64,000 nucleotides of DNA from Nitrospirota bacterium. Lineage in GTDB: Bacteria > Nitrospirota > UBA9217. The position numbers were made by a program, and so were the translations under genes. Below the pieces are notes generated by a model, which made no database searches, was not told where the DNA came from, and worked only from the letters and a program-made list of their open reading frames with translations. Positions 11,985 through 49,727 of this stretch are shown in pieces (within the stretch, counting starts at the first letter, position 1; the number at the start of each line of letters is the position of its first letter). The stretch lies in NCBI GenBank assembly GCA_035625205.1, contig DASPQB010000253.1, forward strand, positions 4,930 to 68,929, written 5' to 3'.

Positions 11985-13262
11985 CTAATTCCCCGTCTCA
12001 AGAGCCCGCGCCCCGATATCTCTTCGGTAGTGTGCGCCATCGTACGTGATCTCCCGAACGCCCCTGTAAGCATTATCGATGGCGGCGGCAACTACTGGAC
12101 CAAGACCGGTCACGCCGAGCACCCTGCCGCCATTTGTCACGATTTTGCCATCCTTAAACGCGGTGCCGGCGTGAAATACCGATACATTGTTCAATTTTAC
12201 GGCGTTCTCGAGACCGCAGATGATCTTGCCTTTTTCGTAGCTGCCGGGATATCCACCCGAGGCCATGACCACGCAGACTGCGGAATCGGGTTTCCATTTG
12301 ATATCGATCTTCGACAGAGAACCCGAAAGGATGGCTTCGATGATATCGATAAGGTCTGTCTCGAGCCTTACCATGATTGGCTGAGTCTCCGGATCACCGA
12401 AGCGGGCGTTAAACTCCAACACCTTCGCTTCGCCGTGCTGGATCATGAGCCCGGCATACAGCACTCCTCGGAACAAGCGTCCTTCTTTTTTCATGGCGCG
12501 CACCGTGGGAACCATGATCGTTTCCATGACATTCCGTTCCAGCTTTTTGGTCACCACCGGGGCCGGAGAATAAGCTCCCATGCCGCCCGTGTTCGGTCCC
12601 TTGTCTCCATCGAACACGCGTTTATGGTCTTGTGACGATGCCATGGGAACCACCGTCTTGCCGTCTGAGAAGGCCATGAAGGAAGCCTCTTCTCCCCTGA
12701 GGCATTCCTCGATCACAATGCGATCACCGGCCGCGCCGAAAACCTTGTCAATCATCATGAGGTCCAATGCCTTAAGCGCCTCTTCCACCGTTTCAGCAAC
12801 CACAACACCCTTTCCTGCTGCTAACCCGTCGGCCTTTACGACTATGGGCGCGCCCTTCTCGCGAACGTAAGCCTCTGCCGAGGCCTTCTCGGTAAACACA
12901 CGGTACTCTGCCGTAGGGATGTGATACTTCCTCATGAGGTCCTTGGAAAACGTCTTGCTTGCCTCGATTTCAGCTGCCTTGCCGCTCGGGCCAAAGGCGC
13001 GTAGCCCTGCATTCGTAAACTCATCCACGATGCCTAACGAGAGCGGTCCTTCCGGGCCCACGATAGTGAGGTCCATGGCCTTGGCTTTGGCGAATGCCAG
13101 AAGTCCGGGGACATCCTCTGTCGTGACTGGTACGCATTCCGCAAGCTGTGCGATACCGGCGTTTCCAGGCGCCGCGTAAATTTTCGTTACCTTCGGGCTC
13201 TGTGCTATTTTCCAGACCAGCGCATGTTCCCTGCCGCCACCACCGATGACGAGTACCTTCAT
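11985..13262 (-). CDS. purD: Phosphoribosylamine-glycine ligase
   Basis: 425 aa with MKVLVIGGGGREHAL at the N-terminus and ATP-grasp motifs. Full-length PurD architecture. Confidence 0.9.
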   Translation of the reverse strand: MKVLVIGGGGREHALVWKIAQSPKVTKIYAAPGNAGIAQLAECVPVTTEDVPGLLAFAKAKAMDLTIVGPEGPLSLGIVDEFTNAGLRAFGPSGKAAEIEASKTFSKDLMRKYHIPTAEYRVFTEKASAEAYVREKGAPIVVKADGLAAGKGVVVAETVEEALKALDLMMIDKVFGAAGDRIVIEECLRGEEASFMAFSDGKTVVPMASSQDHKRVFDGDKGPNTGGMGAYSPAPVVTKKLERNVMETIMVPTVRAMKKEGRLFRGVLYAGLMIQHGEAKVLEFNARFGDPETQPIMVRLETDLIDIIEAILSGSLSKIDIKWKPDSAVCVVMASGGYPGSYEKGKIICGLENAVKLNNVSVFHAGTAFKDGKIVTNGGRVLGVTGLGPVVAAAIDNAYRGVREITYDGAHYRRDIGARALETGN

Positions 13263-21705: not shown

Positions 21706-21921
21706 AGTTTTTTATACCTGCGAACATCCCGAGAGCCTCTTTTTCACTTCTCGAGGTTCCCGTAACTGGTTCCAAACTCTCAAAAAATAAAAAACCGTAT
21801 CCGGTCAGGATACGGCTCGAAAGGTCTTTGGTAATAAAATGCTCGCCTTCCCTACGCCGGCACTACCCGGATCAGGTTCTAAGGGTCGTCCTTTCGGGAC
21901 TCTCAGCCTCTTGGCTCCCCC
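21706..21921 (-). promoter_or_regulatory. TPP (THI-box) riboswitch with intrinsic-terminator expression platform, leader of thiSGEC
   Basis: Minus-strand aptamer GGGGGAGCC..GGCTGAGAGTCCC..ACCCTTAGAACCTGATCCGGGTAGTGCCGGCGTAGGGAAGG matches the THI-element consensus (CUGAGA, ACCUGAUC, GGCGUAGGGA). Followed by hairpin CCGTATCC-tgac-CGGATACGG plus a U-run (~21786-21815) before the thiS start. Confidence 0.8.
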
Positions 21922-22898
21922 AGCATACTATAGGTTAACAATACGGCAAGATAGGCATAAAGTCAATTATTTTCTCAAATCATACACGTATGCTTTTCAG
22001 TATTGCGGCAGATGAAATTGCAGGTGCCGTTTATGCTTGTTTCCTTAATCATTTAATTTGCGAGGGCACCTTGCAACAGAGCTGTTCCGAATCTACCTCC
22101 TCGTACATTCCATGATCGGCGAGACATCAGATTTCCCTGCCTTCGCCAAACGTACAACCGCCGGCACAGCGCGAGAACCGTGCTTTTTTCTCGTATCCGG
22201 ATAGCTGTTGGGCGCTCATTTCCCATTCCGTCATACCGTAAAATTTGCCTGCGCTGAAGCGTAATTTGAACTATAGGGACACTGAAACAACGCTGCCGCA
22301 TCAGTGGTCCTAGCCATAGATCAGACACGTGTCTTGCCGAGATCGTCGAGCACCATACCGGCCACAACCGAGCTCAGCTCGTACCGATTGTCTTTGGGAT
22401 ATGCACGCTCTGCGATGATCCTGCCGTTTTCTCCTTGAAGGAGAGCGCACGGTGACGAGATACGCTGGAACAAAATCGGTAAACAGACGCGACGATGGTC
22501 GAACATTATCTCCTCGATCACGCCCCTCGAACAACGGGAAGCAAACGGGGTTCTGACCTGCGACCCGGCGAGTTCCTCGCCGAAAAGGTTTTGGAGCGAC
22601 TTCTATGGCGAAGTACAAAATATTTACGTTGCTAGCCCACTATACGGACAAATATATTCAAAGTATTGTTGAAGAAAATATGATAACGGCATGTTCACCA
22701 CCCAAAATGGTTTGTCTCATTTTTGGTCATGCGTGATAGTAAAAAATGTTAGTTGACTTTCATGATGCTTTTGCATTAATATTCGCAAAATATCATTCTT
22801 TGTAATTCCATCCATGATTCCACTTCCGTTCTTTGCCAAACGATTTAGATAAAGGTCATTACGATAAACTCATCACATTCAACCAAGGAGGGTTTAAA

Positions 22899-24149
22899 AT
22901 GCGCCGTAACATCTGGTGGTGTTTGGTCATTGGATTATCTCTAATATGCATAAGTATGCCTTTTCCCGTCACAGCCAAGGAAGACTGTATAAAAGCCGCA
23001 AAACTTTCTGATGAGGCAGGCGATCTTGTTTCATCGGACCCGCAACTTGCTGAAAATAAACTTCACCAAGCGCTTTACTACTGCGATTCAAGCGCAGCAT
23101 TGCATTACAACCTTGCAATGGTCCTCATCAGCAATCAAAAACCCGCTGAAGCAGCGAAGCAGTTGGAATTCGCACTCAAGCACAATCCGAAGTATGCCAA
23201 GGCGTTGAATGCTCTTGCCTATCTCTACGCCACAAAGGCCGGAGGAGACCAGGTAAAAGCAAAGCAACTGGCCCAGAATGCCGTAGCTCTCGAACCGGAT
23301 AACGAACAGTACCGACAAACCCTCGAAATGATAACCAGCAACATCGAGGTGGCCCCCCGAACAGCAGTTCGCAGGCCCGATGCTGTAGCGATCATTATCG
23401 GCAATAAAAACTACCAGGACCGCCACATCCCGACAGTTAAATATGCGTACCAGGACGCCGCGCTGGTAAGAAAGTATCTCGTTAACACCCTTGGTTTTGA
23501 TGAGAAGAACATCGTTATGGTCAGCGATGCAAAAAAGGACGACTTTGAAAAATTTTTTGGCACTGAGAGCAATTATAAGGGGTTCTTGTACAACCATGTC
23601 ATCCAAGACCGTTCCGATATTTTTATTTACTATTCCGGCCATGGTGCACCGGACACCAATACGAAGAAAGCATACCTGGTCCCCACCAGCGCCGATCCGA
23701 GTTACATCAATATCACCGCTTATTCACTCGATCTCCTCTATGGGAACCTGGAAAAATTGGATAACGACAAAAAACCCAAAAGCATTACCGTGGTTCTCGA
23801 CTCCTGCTTTAGCGGCGGATCCAATGGGGGCATGATTATCAGGGATGCCAGCCCTATCTTCATTGAAACGACAACCCCGCTTCTTACAATGGACAACGCC
23901 GTGATATTTACCAGCTCCCAGGGTGACCAGATCAGCTCCTGGTATTCGGAAAAACAACATGGACTCTTCACGTACTTTTTCCTGAAAACGATCAAAACGG
24001 CCGCGGAAAATGGCGCTCATTTGACCGCAGAAGACATGGAAAAAGCGCTCCAGGAGCCTGACAGTATAAATGATTATGCGCGGAAATTGTACAACCGTGA
24101 ACAGGTACCCCAGATTACAGGCAATAAAAAGATAACCCTGATTCCTTAG
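22899..24149 (+). CDS. Secreted TPR-repeat protein with C-terminal caspase-like (peptidase C14) domain
   Basis: RBS AAGGAGG 7 nt upstream of the ATG at 22899. Signal peptide MRRNIWWCLVIGLSLICISMPFPVTA. TPR repeats (~aa 30-170). Caspase p20-like core with AVAIIIGNKNY, catalytic His in IYYSGHGAPD and catalytic Cys in VVLDSCFSGG. The ORF-table start at 22833 is probably too far upstream. Confidence 0.8.
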   Translation: MRRNIWWCLVIGLSLICISMPFPVTAKEDCIKAAKLSDEAGDLVSSDPQLAENKLHQALYYCDSSAALHYNLAMVLISNQKPAEAAKQLEFALKHNPKYAKALNALAYLYATKAGGDQVKAKQLAQNAVALEPDNEQYRQTLEMITSNIEVAPRTAVRRPDAVAIIIGNKNYQDRHIPTVKYAYQDAALVRKYLVNTLGFDEKNIVMVSDAKKDDFEKFFGTESNYKGFLYNHVIQDRSDIFIYYSGHGAPDTNTKKAYLVPTSADPSYINITAYSLDLLYGNLEKLDNDKKPKSITVVLDSCFSGGSNGGMIIRDASPIFIETTTPLLTMDNAVIFTSSQGDQISSWYSEKQHGLFTYFFLKTIKTAAENGAHLTAEDMEKALQEPDSINDYARKLYNREQVPQITGNKKITLIP

Positions 24150-24201
24150 TGGTCTTACAGAAAGCTTATATTGGAATGCAATGGAAAATAGGAGGACCTT
24201 G

Positions 24202-24609
24202 ATGAAAAAATTAATCGCCTTGGCCATCATGCTGTCAATCGCCATCCCCCTTCCGGTTCGCGCCGGGCTGACACCTGACTTCGAGCCCGTTGAACAGAAC
24301 TTGATTGACCAGCAAAAACAACAGGAAGAACAGGAACGCCTGCAAAAGGAGCAACAGCAGCAAGAACAGCAAAGGCTTGAAAATCAAAGAATTCAGCAGG
24401 AAATGAACAAGGGACTGCAGCAGCCTGCGCAGCTAACGCCTCAGCAGGCGCCAGTAGCGAAAAAATCAGGCTCGACCTGGTGGATATGGGTGCTTGGGAT
24501 ACTGGCTGTTGGCGGTATCGCTGCAGCCGCAGGAGGAAGTCATGGCAGCAGTAGCAGCAGTAGCAGCAGTGGCGGAGGCAGTACGGGTGCTGTCTCGGCA
24601 CATTGGTAA
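24202..24609 (+). CDS. Gln/Glu-rich coiled-coil protein with signal peptide, C-terminal TM helix and Ser/Gly tail
   Basis: RBS AGGAGG before the ATG at 24202. Signal peptide MKKLIALAIMLSIAIPLPVRAG. Low-complexity QQKQQEEQERLQKEQQQQEQQRLENQRIQQE block, TM helix WWIWVLGILAVGGIAAAAGG, poly-Ser tail. Confidence 0.5.
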   Translation: MKKLIALAIMLSIAIPLPVRAGLTPDFEPVEQNLIDQQKQQEEQERLQKEQQQQEQQRLENQRIQQEMNKGLQQPAQLTPQQAPVAKKSGSTWWIWVLGILAVGGIAAAAGGSHGSSSSSSSSGGGSTGAVSAHW

Positions 24610-24692: not shown

Positions 24693-27600
24693 ATGAAACG
24701 AATGTTCATTTTATTCCTGGCAATCAGTTTCTCTTCCTTCCTTCTCATCGGGTGCGGCTCTCAAGGATCGCAAAATAGCGCTACCGGTACCGGATCGATT
24801 GCATTTCAAGCCCAATGGCTCGGCTCGGCCCCGGTGACGCAGCAAGCACATGCTACATCCGAATCGCCTGTTATCAGGACCGCCCCTGCAAACGTTACAA
24901 CCGTCCAGTTGATTATTTCTGGTGCGGATATGGCCACGATAGGTCCAATTAGCTTCGCAGCTTCCGCAGGGGTAGGAACCATCAGCGGAGTACCAGTCGG
25001 ATCCGACCGAACACTCCTCATGCTCGGGCTAAACTCTAGCAACACTGTTGTTTACCAGGGCGTGAGCTACAACATCACTGTTACTGCAAACCAAACGTCG
25101 AATGCCGGAACGATTGTCCTGGCACCCGTTGTGGCGGGTGGACTCTCAGTCCCATGGCAAGTCGCGGTGGACTCCACTAATATTTACTGGACCGAACAAG
25201 GCACAGGGACGGCCGACGGCTTTGTGAAAAAGATGTCTATTGCGACGGGAGTGATAACCACCCTGGCAAGCGGTCTCTCCGACCCGGTGGGGATCGCCAT
25301 TGATGCAAGCTTTGTCTATTGGACGGAATACGCGCAAGGGACGACCGGCCTTGGCTCGGTCAAAAAAATCAGCATCTCGGGCGGCACAACGCCTACGGTG
25401 CTTACCTCAGGAATCTCGGGTCCCTGGGGTATAGCTGTAGATGGGACCACTGTCTACTGGACCGAATACTTGAACAGCGGTTCGGTTATGAAAATCAACA
25501 AGAATAGCATTAACAGCGCTGGCACAACCCTTGTATCTGGCCTGGCATGGCCCCTCGGGATTGTAGTGGATGCGACCAATGTGTACTGGGCGGAGAACCC
25601 AGCGAACGGCGGAGCTGTAAAGAAAATTCCTATCGGTGGAGGAGCCGCAACGACTCTTGCGACCAGTTTGAGCAGCCCCACGTATATCGCAGTGGATTCG
25701 ACGAGTGTGTACTACACAGAGTACGGTACCGAAGACACAAGCGGGAACACAATTGCCGCCTCGGGAAGCCTGAAAAAAGTATCGTTATCTGCGTCATCAT
25801 ATCCTACGACACCGACAACGCTTGCCTCCGGCCTCAACTATGCGGCAGGTATTGCAGTGGACTCAACGAACGTCTACTTCACGGAATTTGGCTTCTCAAT
25901 CGGCTCGGTCAAATACGTACCGATAAATGCCAGCAACGCCACACCGACGCCTGTTGTGATTAACCTTCCCAATGGCACGACAACATCGGCTACTGGCCTG
26001 TATGCCCCCTATTACTTGGCTATTGATCCAAGTGACCAGTACGTGTATTGGACCGAAAGCAATTCAGGAACGATCAAGCGGGCAATCACAGGTACGTCGA
26101 GCACAACCGCACCTTCTGCACCTACAGGCGTAACGGCCACTGCCGGGAATGCGCAGGTAGCTGTAAGTTGGACGGCCTCCACCGGCGCAACATCGTATAA
26201 TGTCTACTATTCAACGTCTGCCGCTGTGTCTACCTCAAGTTACATCGGTTTGATCTCAACGACAACTACCACAGCCACTGTTTATGGACTTGCTAATGGT
26301 ACAACGTATTATTTCATCGTCACTGCTGTCAACGGAGCAGGACAGAGTGCAGCATCCAGTCCAGCGGCATCAGCAGTACCTTCGGCGGTCATAACCACTC
26401 CGGCTGCTCCTACAGGTGTAACGGCCACTGCCGGGAATGCGCAGGTAGCTGTAAGTTGGACGGCCTCCACCGGCGCAACGTCGTATGATGTCTACTATTC
26501 AACGTCAGCCGCTGTGTCTACCTCAAGTTACCTCGGTTTGATCACAACAGCCACGAATTCCGCTCTTGTGTCAGGACTCACTAACAGTACAACGTATTAT
26601 TTCATCGTCACTGCTGTTAACGGCGCCGGACAGAGCGCAGCATCCAGTCCAGCGGCATCAGCAGCACCGTCGGCGGTCATAACGATACCGTCTGCTCCTA
26701 CAGGCGTAACCGCCATAGCAGGAAATGCCCAGGCGACCTTAAGTTGGACGGCCTCCACCGGCGCAACGTCGTATGATATCTACTATTCAACGTCGGCCGC
26801 CGTATCCACGTCAAGTTACATCGGTTCGTTCTCAACAACGTCGACCTCAGACATTATCTCAGGACTTACTAACAGTACGACGTATTATTTCATCGTCACT
26901 GCCGTCAACAGCGCAGGTCAAAGCACAGCGTCCACTCCAACAGTCTCTGCTATGCCATCAGCAAGTATCCTATATCAGTTCAGCTCCATAGATGTGCCCA
27001 ATGCGGTCAATACGTATGCCACCGCAATCAACAGCACCGGCCAGGTAGTTGGATACTACTGGGACTCAAGCAATATACAACACGGCTATTTACTTACTTC
27101 AGGAACATTCTCTACCATTGATTATCCGGGAGCCACGGTGGAGTGGGGGACCGAGTTGTGGGGAATTAACGATTCCGGAGCTATTGTCGGAGCACATGGT
27201 CCAGTCTACATTGGTGTTGCTTATGGTTTCGTTTTGTCCGGCGGGGTTTTCACTTCAATTAATTTCTCCACTGCCCCCGGCAGCGCTCTCGGAGCAAATG
27301 CCATGGGAATCAACAATGCCGGCCAGGTCGTGGGAGAGTATGAGGCCGGGTCTGCTCCCACTTCTTTTTGTCCGTCCTGCGTATTTCCATCAAATCCCGC
27401 TATTGGCTATTTGGATACTGCAGGGAGTTACACTGCATTTATCCCCGCAGGGTCTGGGAGTAGCACTGCCAACGGCATCAATACAGCCGGCAAGATTGTA
27501 GGCGGATACTATGACTCAAGCCTCGCGGGACACGGTTATACGTATTCTGGAGGAGTCTTTACTACTATTGATTTCCCCGGAGGGGGTGGCTCCAATTCGA

Positions 27601-27827
27601 GCAATAACAAACTTTTTAAAATCAATGATAACGGACAGATGGTGGGAGAATACGTGGACTCAACGGGCAAATGGCATGGCTATCTGTATAACGGAACTAC
27701 CTTTACAACTATTGATGTGCCCAATGCCACCGGTACGTTTACTCTTGGCATCAACAATTCTGGGCAGATCGTGGGATATTGGACCGATTCCAGCAGCAAA
27801 GCGCATGGTTTTATAGCAACGCCATGA
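24693..27827 (+). CDS. Large surface lipoprotein: YWTD-type beta-propeller + 3 fibronectin type III domains + HAF-like C-terminal repeats
   Basis: Lipoprotein signal MKRMFILFLAISFSSFLLIGCGS. Seven ~43-aa blades, each ending in a YWTE-type motif (STNIYWTEQG, SFVYWTEYA, TTVYWTEYL, TNVYWAENP, TSVYYTEYG, TNVYFTEFG, QYVYWTESN), with P-GIAVD between blades. Three 96-aa Fn3 repeats (SWTASTGATSY..YYS..TYYFIVTAVN). Six C-terminal ~45-aa repeats IN(N/D)xGQ(I/V)VG..(Y/W).DS...HG(Y/F). Confidence 0.8.
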   Translation: MKRMFILFLAISFSSFLLIGCGSQGSQNSATGTGSIAFQAQWLGSAPVTQQAHATSESPVIRTAPANVTTVQLIISGADMATIGPISFAASAGVGTISGVPVGSDRTLLMLGLNSSNTVVYQGVSYNITVTANQTSNAGTIVLAPVVAGGLSVPWQVAVDSTNIYWTEQGTGTADGFVKKMSIATGVITTLASGLSDPVGIAIDASFVYWTEYAQGTTGLGSVKKISISGGTTPTVLTSGISGPWGIAVDGTTVYWTEYLNSGSVMKINKNSINSAGTTLVSGLAWPLGIVVDATNVYWAENPANGGAVKKIPIGGGAATTLATSLSSPTYIAVDSTSVYYTEYGTEDTSGNTIAASGSLKKVSLSASSYPTTPTTLASGLNYAAGIAVDSTNVYFTEFGFSIGSVKYVPINASNATPTPVVINLPNGTTTSATGLYAPYYLAIDPSDQYVYWTESNSGTIKRAITGTSSTTAPSAPTGVTATAGNAQVAVSWTASTGATSYNVYYSTSAAVSTSSYIGLISTTTTTATVYGLANGTTYYFIVTAVNGAGQSAASSPAASAVPSAVITTPAAPTGVTATAGNAQVAVSWTASTGATSYDVYYSTSAAVSTSSYLGLITTATNSALVSGLTNSTTYYFIVTAVNGAGQSAASSPAASAAPSAVITIPSAPTGVTAIAGNAQATLSWTASTGATSYDIYYSTSAAVSTSSYIGSFSTTSTSDIISGLTNSTTYYFIVTAVNSAGQSTASTPTVSAMPSASILYQFSSIDVPNAVNTYATAINSTGQVVGYYWDSSNIQHGYLLTSGTFSTIDYPGATVEWGTELWGINDSGAIVGAHGPVYIGVAYGFVLSGGVFTSINFSTAPGSALGANAMGINNAGQVVGEYEAGSAPTSFCPSCVFPSNPAIGYLDTAGSYTAFIPAGSGSSTANGINTAGKIVGGYYDSSLAGHGYTYSGGVFTTIDFPGGGGSNSSNNKLFKINDNGQMVGEYVDSTGKWHGYLYNGTTFTTIDVPNATGTFTLGINNSGQIVGYWTDSSSKAHGFIATP
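26100..26963 (+). repeat. Three tandem 288-bp near-identical repeats (the Fn3-encoding units) inside the lipoprotein gene
   Basis: Repeat landmark ACAGG(C/T)GTAAC(G/C)GCCA at 26124, 26412 and 26700 (period exactly 288 bp). Copies 1 and 2 are nearly identical at nucleotide level over >250 bp; copy 3 is more diverged. Confidence 0.85.
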
Positions 27828-28244: not shown

Positions 28245-29090
28245 TTACTCTCTCACCTCATACCCCACCGTACTTTCCGCCCACAGCGAGGGATCGAGGT
28301 CTGACAGCTCTTTCATCAGATCAGTAATTGTGGGGTTTTCCAGGGATTTGTCGGCAAGGAGCGATGTTTTTTCTTTCGTGGCGATCACGAGTACAGATTC
28401 GATAGATTGTTTTACTCCCTTGGGTGTCTTCACCTTAAGCCGGAGCCCCCGGTCCCTGGTAGTGTTATCGGGGAATATGAACTCTGTTTCCCCGGCCAGA
28501 GCAGCCTTCTGCTGCTTAACGTAAGAATTCGGATAGAGTTTGCTTACGTTCCCGTACTGGTCCACGCTGAAAAGCTGGAGGAATGCGTCTTCATTGGTAG
28601 TGATCCGAATCTGAATCTCGTCATTATTCTGGAAGACTGGGCTCTTTGCCGCAAGATCCATGTCCGGCCTCTGTACCGAAGCCGATGTGATCGAGAAATT
28701 CCCTTTTCTTTCGATATTGAGCGGCTTTATGGATGCCTTAATCTTGGCAACGCACAGAAAACGCCCATCCGCAATTTTACAGGAGTTATCCAGAAGTTGT
28801 TCCTGGACGATAATCCCCTTGGTCGCCGTCCTTACCAGATCGTTGATAAGGATATTATTGTACACGACCGATGAACCACGCACCTCTATCCCCGTCGCTT
28901 TTTCAAGTGCATCCCTGCGAGCGTTGTTCAAGGCCGTGACCTTGCCTTGGGACATGGTAGCGTCCTCTCCCAGATTCGCCTGTCCTTCGCCTTCTACCAC
29001 TTTTAACTCGTCAGCGGCAAAGAGCGGTGATAAGATCATGAAAAATACTACTATGAGGAACAGCAGTCTGAGAATTATAGTCTTCGTCAT
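28245..29090 (-). CDS. Secreted LPP20-like N-terminal domain + DUF4384-like C-terminal domain protein
   Basis: RBS AAGGGAG before the ATG. Signal peptide MTKTIILRLLFLIVVFFMILSPLFAADE. N-terminal GEGQANLGEDATMSQGKVTALNNARRDALEKATGIEV resembles LPP20/FlgP. C-terminal DEIQIRITTNEDAFLQLFSVDQYGNVSKLYPN ... FIFPD ... VLVIATKE resembles the DUF4384 pattern. Confidence 0.55.
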   Translation of the reverse strand: MTKTIILRLLFLIVVFFMILSPLFAADELKVVEGEGQANLGEDATMSQGKVTALNNARRDALEKATGIEVRGSSVVYNNILINDLVRTATKGIIVQEQLLDNSCKIADGRFLCVAKIKASIKPLNIERKGNFSITSASVQRPDMDLAAKSPVFQNNDEIQIRITTNEDAFLQLFSVDQYGNVSKLYPNSYVKQQKAALAGETEFIFPDNTTRDRGLRLKVKTPKGVKQSIESVLVIATKEKTSLLADKSLENPTITDLMKELSDLDPSLWAESTVGYEVRE

Positions 29091-32534: not shown

Positions 32535-32610
32535 TGGAGCGGGCGACGGGTCTCGAACCCGCGACCCCAAGCTTGGGAAGCTTGTACTCTACCAGCTGAG
32601 CTACGCCCGC
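32535..32610 (-). tRNA. tRNA-Gly (anticodon CCC)
   Basis: Minus-strand sequence GCGGGCGTAGCTCAGCTGGTAGAGTACAAGCTTCCCAAGCTTGGGGTCGCGGGTTCGAGACCCGTCGCCCGCTCCA. Perfect 7-bp acceptor stem, D arm, anticodon stem CAAGC/GCTTG with loop TTCCCAA, T arm GTTCGAGAC, encoded CCA. Confidence 0.85.
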
Positions 32611-48098: not shown

Positions 48099-48341
48099 TA
48101 CACACTCCTTGGGCAAGGTGGTTAAAAAATATGTTTCACACAGCAGTGACCAGAAAAACCGACCAGGCGTTCTAGGCGCAGATGAGCTGGAATAGGCCGA
48201 TAGCATAATCACAAAATCGATTTGCATTAGTAGAAGCTCTTTCGATTCGTCATCTGTGAAAATCTGTGTTCCAACGAATCTAGAAGTAATTTCCTCTATA
48301 TCCTCCGTAGTACCGCGCTCATGTGGTCAAGATCTTAAAGC

Positions 48342-48368
48342 GAAAAAAAGGGAGAGTATGTACTCTCC
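48342..48368 (-). terminator. Intrinsic terminator/attenuator between gcvH and lpd
   Basis: Minus strand: GGGAGAGTAC-ata-CTCTCCC followed by TTTTTTT, 45 nt after the gcvH stop. Confidence 0.5.
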
Positions 48369-48413
48369 CTTTCGGTTGATGACAAGAACTATGGTGGCCG
48401 GTTCCTCCGAAGT

Positions 48414-48803
48414 CTACTTCCCCTCTTCTTCTTTCAGGAACTTTTCGTACTCCGACTTGCTCATCAAGTCGTTCAATTCGGAAGTATCGCTCATTTCAAG
48501 CACAACGAGCCAGCCATTTCCGTAGGGGTCTTCGTTTATGATCTCTGGCGAGTCGGCGAGGTCCTCGTTCACCTCCACCACTGTGCCCGACACCGGACTA
48601 ACGACAGGCGAAGTCGCTTTCGTAGACTCGACTTCGGAAAGCTCAGAGTCTGCATCGATTTCCGTGTCTGTTTCTGGAAGATCGATATAAACAATATCAC
48701 CCATCTGCTGTTGGGCATAGTCGGTAATGCCGATTGTTGCCCGCTTTCCTTCCGCCCGAACCCAAGCATGCTCTCTGTGATATTTTATATCATCGGGATT
48801 CAT
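48414..48803 (-). CDS. gcvH: Glycine cleavage system H protein (lipoyl carrier)
   Basis: 129 aa with lipoyl-lysine motif SELSEVESTKATSPVVSPVSG and HAWV motif. Confidence 0.9.
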   Translation of the reverse strand: MNPDDIKYHREHAWVRAEGKRATIGITDYAQQQMGDIVYIDLPETDTEIDADSELSEVESTKATSPVVSPVSGTVVEVNEDLADSPEIINEDPYGNGWLVVLEMSDTSELNDLMSKSEYEKFLKEEEGK

Positions 48804-48845
48804 GGATACCTACCTCCAAATTGGAACGTGAAGAGAATGAGTCTG

Positions 48846-48874
48846 TTTTTAGCCCATGCGCGCTATTTTGTCAA
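48846..48874 (-). promoter_or_regulatory. Putative sigma70 promoter for gcvH
   Basis: Minus strand TTGACA - 17 nt - TAAAAA ~45 nt upstream of the gcvH ATG. A perfect extended -10 TGTTATAAT also occurs further upstream (48940-48948, minus strand). Confidence 0.3.
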
Positions 48875-49668
48875 GCAAAAAAATGTCGTCATTCATCGGC
48901 TTGCTGCAGAGAAGAACTTTCACGAGGGAAGATTAAAATATTATAACACAGCAACAGGCAAGAGAGAACGCTCAGGGATGTCATAGCTCATGTTGACGTA
49001 CTCCCAACGCTAAAGAACGTAGGGCTACCCACGCCATTTCCCTAAACGTAAATCGGGATAGGGGGGAGCCTCTCGGCTCCTCCCCTCCCACACCGTGCGT
49101 ACGGCTGCGTACACGGCAGTTCGGCTGGTTAAGCGAACGCTTCTCGCCTCGCTTTGGGTAGGCAGTGTTTCGCAAGCGTTTCGGTCCTTGTCGGTGTCCC
49201 TCGGGGCTTCACCCCTACCTTCACCGTGAACAGCTATACTGGATTTTCTGCCGCATTACGTTGGCAGTTTCATCCTACATGCAACTCCAACCGTTTGGGC
49301 CTTCGCCCCGCCACGGGACTATGATGCCCTCTGCGGACTTCTGCGCCACGGTCAGGAAACCTCACGGCTCCCTCAGTCTCGATTCCGGGACATGACGCAG
49401 ATCTCCCGAGGTAAATTCGACCGCCTTCCGCGCACAACCGCTGGATTTACGCCCTGCGCCTTTGATGGATGTCGACATCGCGATCATTTGCCCGCTCGTG
49501 GGGCACTCACGCCTCATAGCCGGTTTTTGTTCATCGGCTCGCGCGTTTGCTCCACGCTTCTTTCAGACCCCGCGTCTCGATGAAGCCCTTGCGCTTCGCT
49601 AACCCTTCGCCTCCATCAGGCTGGGTAGCGGACTCGCACCTCCAAACTGTCGAACATGCTCGGCACAC

Positions 49669-49697
49669 AAAAAAAGGGATGCGTTTCTTCGCATCCC
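49669..49697 (-). terminator. Rho-independent terminator of the rnf operon
   Basis: Minus strand: GGGATGCG-aagaaa-CGCATCCC followed by TTTTTTT, 30 nt after the rnfB stop. Confidence 0.7.
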
Positions 49698-49727
49698 CTT
49701 CACTTCACAAATGTCATTACGATAGTG

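Follow-up and report, generated by a model that had tools for sequence, protein, structure and literature searches.

The window analyzed here, 64,000 nucleotides of contig DASPQB010000253.1 from a Nitrospirota bacterium, contains an open reading frame (ORF) of 416 codons (22899-24149, + strand) whose product combines a predicted signal peptide, a tetratricopeptide repeat (TPR) module, and a C-terminal caspase-fold domain. This TPR-caspase is very likely an exported and catalytically competent C14 peptidase. The fuller interpretation, a Sec-exported competent endopeptidase that docks partners on its TPR module and processes them in the envelope, is reasonably probable, and action on its cassette or on DUF4384 partners is proposed only tentatively. 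An earlier note on this DNA had suggested an active periplasmic or secreted orthocaspase; the positions of the catalytic dyad, the specificity pocket, and the start codon agree with that suggestion in silico, and activity and export are predicted accordingly.

The export signal depends on the choice of start codon. ATG 22899 lies six bases beyond the strong ribosome-binding site AAGGAGGG (22885..22892, + strand; read from the sequence), whereas no comparable site precedes ATG 22956, which encodes Met20. No in-frame ATG occurs 5' of 22899, the ORF listing ending at TTG 22833. Residues 1-19 are conserved at the protein level in homologs of 78-92% identity, and the arrangement of n, h, and c regions persists in distant homologs. 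These observations favor ATG 22899, a choice that the earlier note had wanted checked. In the public annotation of the source contig (L086, with the same gene order as the window), the caspase has 397 residues and starts at Met20, which removes the signal peptide and would make the deposited protein seem cytoplasmic; a look-up of the exact 416-residue product found no record because the public call begins at Met20. Given the ribosome-binding site ahead of ATG 22899 and the conservation of residues 1-19 and of the signal pattern, the 397-residue call is regarded as wrong.

The predicted Sec-type signal peptide spans residues 1-26 (22899..22976, + strand) and consists of MRRN, IWWCLVIGLSLICISM, and PFPVTA, with cleavage predicted between Ala26 and Lys27. 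Thus, two arginines are followed by a 16-residue uncharged hydrophobic core and then by VTA-K, so that the charged n-region, the h-region, and the small residues at -3 and -1 expected of a Sec signal peptide can all be recognized in the sequence. A heuristic of our own, based on n, h, and c regions with an AxA motif (h-region of at least 10 uncharged hydrophobic residues, small residues at -3 and -1), was applied to the 54 full-length sequences of the homolog alignment (37-92% identity). It was passed by 47 of them, in agreement with the cleavable signal peptide claimed previously; among the sequences that fail, several can be seen to be truncated or annotated from a wrong start. In the homologs the predicted cleavage site always falls a few residues ahead of a conserved D-C motif. 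A signal for twin-arginine translocation (Tat) was considered on account of Arg-Arg at residues 2-3 and rejected: the pair is not conserved among the homologs, and Sec is therefore likelier than Tat. A lipobox was looked for in the caspase and was not found. Relatives without TPR carry a signal peptide or a lipobox in 22 of 31 cases, with the lipobox motif in 8 of those 22. The products of three neighboring genes (the small protein, the lipoprotein, and the DUF4384 protein described below) likewise appear to carry export signals.

Downstream of the predicted cleavage site, the TPR module (residues 27-147; 22977..23339, + strand) comprises three helical hairpins (30-61, 66-95, and 100-131) and a capping helix (136-146). 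Several Pfam TPR models match residues 66-140. The AlphaFold2 model, built from the 54-sequence alignment (predicted local distance difference test, pLDDT, 90.5; predicted template modeling score, pTM, 0.77), shows seven helices in residues 30-146, i.e., three TPR-like hairpins and the capping helix, and hence a TPR superhelix of the three-repeat, peptide-binding type. Cys30 (codon 22986-22988) and Cys62 (codon 23082-23084) mark the two ends of the first hairpin; the former is at least 90% conserved and the latter invariant in the alignment. Cys30 stands at the start of helix 30-43 and Cys62 just past helix 48-61; these helix ends are adjacent in the antiparallel hairpin, and the arrangement is most naturally read as a disulfide. 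Such a bond probably staples the TPR module, and it would suggest an oxidizing compartment.

The Peptidase_C14 domain occupies residues 148-416 approximately (23340..24146, + strand). Pfam PF00656 matches residues 163-407 over profile positions 3-224 of 233, with a score of 54.5 bits (cut-off 21.4; E 1.7e-14). Residues 163-415 are modeled as an alpha/beta domain with main strands 163-168, 205-209, 240-246, 295-301, 334-338, and 405-408, which corresponds to the caspase-hemoglobinase fold of family C14. The loop that follows the catalytic cysteine (305-333) is the sole poorly modeled stretch, yet it carries a conserved motif, ASPI.IE. The best Foldseek match is MALT1 (E 5e-10); metacaspases, caspases, and legumain-type enzymes come next. 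Searches of the PDB by sequence gave TPR proteins only for the whole protein and no match for the 128-residue fragment from the catalytic histidine to the cysteine.

All the motifs quoted in the earlier note are present: GNKNY corresponds to residues 168-172, YSGHGAPD holds the catalytic His248 (codon 23640-23642), and DSCFSGG holds the catalytic Cys303 (codon 23805-23807). His248, Cys303, and Asp186 (codon 23454-23456) are invariant among the 54 homologs, Asp301 (codon 23799-23801) and Ser246 are at least 90% conserved, and the active-site and S1 residues stay conserved when relatives without TPR are added to the alignment. In the model, strands 240-246 and 295-301 immediately precede His248 and Cys303, as they should for the catalytic positions. 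The same assignment follows from an hhalign comparison of the family profile with Yca1 (E 7.3e-5, 136 columns; the catalytic-domain query was checked against PDB 4f6o_A and agrees with residues 49-350 at 100% identity), in which His248 corresponds to His220, Cys303 to Cys276, and Asp186 to the aspartate of the metacaspase C-I-N-D motif (C-x-N-D). The caspase-domain profile also aligns YYSGHG with the HYSGHG motif of metacaspases among PDB chains, although these matches are marginal (E 0.03).

The S1 pocket can be compared with those of two other enzymes. In TbMCA2 it is formed by Cys92, Asp95 (α1), Ser156 (L3), and Asp211 (L4), and in MALT1 by Asp365 (α1), Asp462 (L4), and Glu500 (L5) (McLuskey and Mottram, PMC4357240). 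The counterparts in the TPR-caspase are Asp186 at the start of helix α1, Ser246, and Asp301, two residues before the catalytic cysteine; that is, an acidic pocket of the C14B kind, with Asp186 and Asp301 at the positions of Asp95/Asp211 and Asp365/Asp462. A metacaspase/paracaspase-like preference for Arg or Lys at P1 is therefore the best prediction, and the aspartate that the earlier note had named as the indicator of this specificity is in place.

The caspase gene is followed by two genes on the same strand, and the three are probably co-transcribed. The first (24181..24609, + strand) starts 31 nt past the caspase stop codon and encodes a small protein of 142 residues, with a signal peptide, a DFEPVE motif, a variable Gln/Glu-rich linker, a Gly/Ala-rich hydrophobic segment (WWIWVLGILAVGGIAAAAGG), and a Gly/Ser tail, in that order. 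It belongs to no Pfam family. Its phmmer matches lie in 11 loci, and the C-terminal tryptophan is invariant in an alignment of 10 homologs, each encoded one or two genes downstream of a TPR-caspase. The TPR module of the caspase is similar to the kind of TPR domain to which C-terminal peptides bind (Hop/STI1), and binding of the Gly/Ser tail and its tryptophan in the TPR groove is conceivable; however, the simplest topology of this putatively bitopic protein would place the tail on the cytoplasmic side.

The third gene of the cassette (24693..27827, + strand), 83 nt further on, encodes a lipoprotein of 1044 residues with the lipobox LIGC. According to Pfam and NCBIfam, it consists of an N-terminal Ig-like domain (about 125 residues), a YWTD-type propeller, three fn3 domains, and HAF repeats. 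The lipobox and the N-domain are conserved in the cassettes of loci L001, L002, L004, L008, L009, L010, and L011, while the rest of these lipoproteins is variable (fn3, Kelch, Big_5, Lcl_C, or HAF domains). Within the gene, positions 26100-26960 (+ strand) encode three tandem, closely similar fn3 repeats (APxGVTATAGNAQVAVSWTASTGATSY...), which show up as repeats within the DNA when the window is compared with L001. The order of the cassette genes is conserved in close relatives that have the same thi and cob flanks, and also in L008, L009, and L010, where the flanking thi and cob families of the window were not found; the linkage is therefore more than inherited synteny. L008 and L009 represent two paralogous cassettes on different contigs of one metagenome-assembled genome (JAHJAA01, Modern_marine.mb.199).

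Across phyla, no other neighbor of caspase relatives is nearly as common as an exported DUF4384 protein. Among 144 same-strand caspase neighbors scanned with Pfam, 22 contain DUF4384 and the next family accounts for 3. Of the 85 fetched loci, 28-31 encode a full-length homolog of the DUF4384 protein (about 290 residues) no more than a few genes from the caspase, as the window does; it often lies directly downstream and on the same strand. The representative in the window (28245..29090, - strand; 281 residues) is convergent to the cassette and matches PF14326 with 50.8 bits (cut-off 27); its homologs are all assigned to the same family in precomputed annotation. It is composed of a signal peptide, an alpha/beta N-domain, and the Ig-like DUF4384 domain, near whose beginning Arg140 is invariant; Cys103 and Cys112 form a conserved cysteine pair. 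The AlphaFold2 model (pLDDT 86.8) shows the alpha/beta N-domain and an Ig-like sandwich; it matched no solved structure below E 1e-3, only generic Ig-like sandwiches, and the fold therefore yields no functional lead. The N-domain has a G.G...A...A...A pattern that we take to be associated with LPP20-type lipoproteins, and two neighbors of related caspases match Pfam LPP20. Fusions of DUF4384 to orthocaspases and to other protease domains have been noted in the literature.

Most likely, the TPR-caspase would be exported by Sec to the periplasm or outer membrane. Removal of the signal peptide at Ala26-Lys27 would leave a mature protein made up of the TPR module and the C-terminal caspase domain. 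The three-TPR docking module, probably stapled by Cys30-Cys62, might then recruit specific envelope partners, and the caspase domain (clan CD, family C14) would cut them after Arg or Lys by means of His248/Cys303 and the acidic S1 pocket of Asp186/Asp301. Candidate partners are the two other cassette products (the lipoprotein and the small bitopic protein) and the DUF4384 protein. The identity of the substrate is a matter of speculation; the lipoprotein and/or the DUF4384 protein could be matured, released, or turned over in this way. Cytoplasmic execution of cell death is not a likely role.

Several observations weigh against this scheme. The third S1 position (L5; Glu500 in MALT1, Arg207 in caspase-3) seems to be Tyr349, according to a weak hhalign result: with caspase-3, whose sequence was verified against the PDB, only the C-terminal part was aligned (probability 0.3), SSWY being placed against SWR207. 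A free catalytic thiol would require protection in an oxidizing compartment. No invariant Arg or Lys cleavage site was found in the 305-333 loop of the caspase itself among the 54 homologs, and none in the N-domain of the lipoprotein. In the DUF4384 protein, Arg140 is invariant and several other Lys and Arg residues are conserved, none of them identifiable as a cleavage site. The DUF4384 gene of the window lies on the opposite strand, about 4 kb off and downstream of cob genes, and its conservation in close relatives may partly be shared synteny.

None of the rival explanations is favored. An unlikely one holds that the enzyme is a general secreted degradative protease, acting in nutrition or in attack on other cells as gingipains and clostripain do, and having no dedicated partners. 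Predicted export of a clan CD cysteine protease would suit such a role, and a role in degrading proteins outside the cell has been put forward for some bacterial metacaspases (PMC4933709). However, a TPR docking module and a small-protein/lipoprotein cassette are conserved alongside the caspase, and the cross-phylum DUF4384 linkage suggests specific partners; besides, no secretion-system signal beyond Sec is visible, since the caspase domain itself forms the C-terminus. It is still less probable that the protein is a sortase-like transpeptidase attaching or releasing the neighboring surface lipoprotein. The caspase fold does occur in such enzymes, including PorU, the sortase of type IX secretion, as well as GPI transamidase and asparaginyl ligases, but metacaspases, MALT1, and caspases score higher, and the S1 residues are of the metacaspase/paracaspase type. 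Moreover, what the cassette lipoproteins conserve is the N-domain; no C-terminal sorting signal was seen in them, and the lipoprotein of the window ends in a HAF repeat.

Quite improbable, too, is a caspase of cell-death or anti-phage conflict, of the EACC1-associated or gasdermin-activating type, with cytoplasmic targets. The best NCBIfam match of the TPR-caspase is indeed caspase_w_EACC1 (NF047832), yet the 64.7 bits obtained are far under the curated cut-off of 140, and no partner genes of the EACC1 type were found. PADLOC gave a generic 'caspase' match (37 bits) and nothing for the neighbors, on which grounds a defense island was rejected; there is no adjacent NTPase, effector, or gasdermin-like gene, the surroundings consist of thiamine and cobalamin biosynthesis genes, and the signal peptide and cysteine pair argue for a non-cytoplasmic site. 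A non-catalytic pseudo-protease acting as a TPR scaffold in the envelope is very unlikely. Pseudo-orthocaspases are common in bacteria, but the known variants substitute His and/or Cys (PMC6426788), whereas His248, Cys303, Asp186, and Ser246 are all invariant or nearly so in this family; the low confidence of the loop after the catalytic Cys is the structural point in favor of such a scaffold. Least probable of all is a cytoplasmic protein that starts at Met20 and has no signal peptide. Such a protein would accord with the public 397-residue call and with the missing record of the longer product, but the ribosome-binding site and the conservation of residues 1-19 speak for ATG 22899, and the Cys30/Cys62 pair suggests an oxidizing compartment.

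An exported, partner-directed C14 peptidase would differ in several respects from the known systems that it resembles. Metacaspases of C14B (e.g., Yca1, Arabidopsis MC4/MC9, and Trypanosoma MCA2) are eukaryotic and intracellular, whereas the TPR-caspase is bacterial and predicted to be exported; in place of their prodomain it has a signal peptide and a TPR module. The calcium-binding acidic loop of Yca1 (DGDEEDG) has no counterpart in the aligned region, and six main strands are seen in the model, by a reading of secondary structure rather than a comparison of coordinates, as against the eight-stranded sheet of metacaspases. MALT1, a eukaryotic signaling protease with death and Ig domains, is cytoplasmic, and its third S1 residue, Glu500, seemingly corresponds to Tyr349 by the weak alignment mentioned above. 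To our knowledge, the characterized orthocaspases are cyanobacterial and cytoplasmic. The TPR-caspase has a Sec signal peptide instead and belongs to a separate, mostly non-cyanobacterial clade with a C-terminal caspase domain, but it shares with orthocaspases such as MaOC1 from Microcystis the prokaryotic p20-type domain, the His-Cys dyad, and the predicted basic P1 preference (PMC6426788). Fusion of a TPR module to a caspase-fold protease is also known from Csx29, the TPR-CHAT protein of type III-E CRISPR systems, and DUF4384 is one class of C-terminal domain in its substrate Csx30. Csx29 differs from the TPR-caspase in being a much larger, cytoplasmic member of the CHAT family that is activated by RNA. 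The ORFs examined in the window include no detected CRISPR genes, and the likeness is an analogy of parts that does not extend to homology of the systems. GSU0716 from Geobacter sulfurreducens (PDB 3BIJ) is a structural-genomics entry with no described function, the crystallized chain being devoid of a TPR module.

Other features of the window include a TPP riboswitch (Rfam RF00059, 69.4 bits; 21831-21931, - strand) upstream of the divergent thiS-thiG-thiE-thiC genes; a terminator-like hairpin followed by a T-run lies just downstream of it (21818-21792, - strand) and could be the expression platform. Compared with L001, the closest relative (collinear, with 82-85% nucleotide identity), the window has about 500 nt of additional intergenic DNA (21975-22680), which brings the gap upstream of the caspase gene to nearly 1 kb. 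This additional DNA has no repeat elsewhere in the window or in the loci, and three short minus-strand ORFs scanned in the gap have no Pfam match. Further away are the gene for PurD (11985-13262, - strand), a tRNA-Gly with anticodon CCC (32535-32610, - strand), and matches to group II intron domains (Rfam D1D4-3, 94 bits, and D1D4-1, 43 bits; 49298-49584, - strand). The latter sit in a 1.5-kb stretch (48228-49727) with no ORF of at least 150 residues and could represent an ORF-less intron or a remnant.

The TPR-caspase is not a new kind of protein but a member of a very large and biochemically unstudied group of cell-envelope caspase relatives. In a search with the caspase domain alone, the number of relatives, counted as representatives of 50%-identity clusters, was 12,301 at E<=1e-3 and fell to 6,660 at E<=1e-10 and to 2,188 at E<=1e-30. 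Nearly all of the 150 best matches carry the caspase domain at the C-terminus, while their N-terminal regions vary. Among species-representative genomes, 524 relatives were confirmed, and 80 loci were kept, from Nitrospirota, Desulfobacterota, Bacteroidota, Ignavibacteriota, Calditrichota, Cloacimonadota, and others. Extra domains of the relatives include CARDB, PEGA, or FGE-sulfatase, and such proteins are already named 'caspase family protein' at NCBI. The bioinformatic catalog of Asplund-Samuelsson et al. (2012) covered 671 prokaryotic metacaspases and reported an N-terminal transmembrane helix or likely signal peptide in about 15% of them; it also counted TPR among the most frequent partner domains and put forward an extracellular location (PMC3501461). 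Export is thus not exceptional among bacterial caspase homologs, and the rarity implied by the earlier note, which had regarded most characterized bacterial C14 proteins as cytoplasmic, was overstated. The new parts, worth following up, are the conserved three-gene cassette and the DUF4384 linkage, neither of which is among the points reported in those portions of the 2012 survey considered here.

Bacterial caspase relatives are mostly discussed as cytoplasmic factors of cell death and defense. Although over 2,000 representatives at 50% identity belong to the present clade, the literature searches found no paper on a biochemically characterized exported bacterial C14 enzyme and, beyond the 2012 survey, nothing relevant. 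The case also illustrates that an export signal can go unseen in a public record when the start codon is called wrongly. It is possible, though doubtful, that the exported caspase clade and the exported DUF4384 proteins form a widespread, so far unrecognized module of envelope processing or signaling, to which the TPR subclade adds the small bitopic protein and a modular lipoprotein, and in which the caspase would cleave a DUF4384-containing or lipoprotein partner docked via its accessory domain. If true, the module would mirror, in the periplasm, the logic by which Csx29 and Csx30 work in type III-E systems. The TPR-caspase is compact (416 residues), has a confident model, and is encoded alongside its candidate partners; the predictions are clear as well, namely that its active site is specific for Arg/Lys, that it contains one disulfide, and that its TPR module binds peptides. 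It may therefore provide a practical entry point to the caspase-fold proteases of the envelope and to the purpose of DUF4384.
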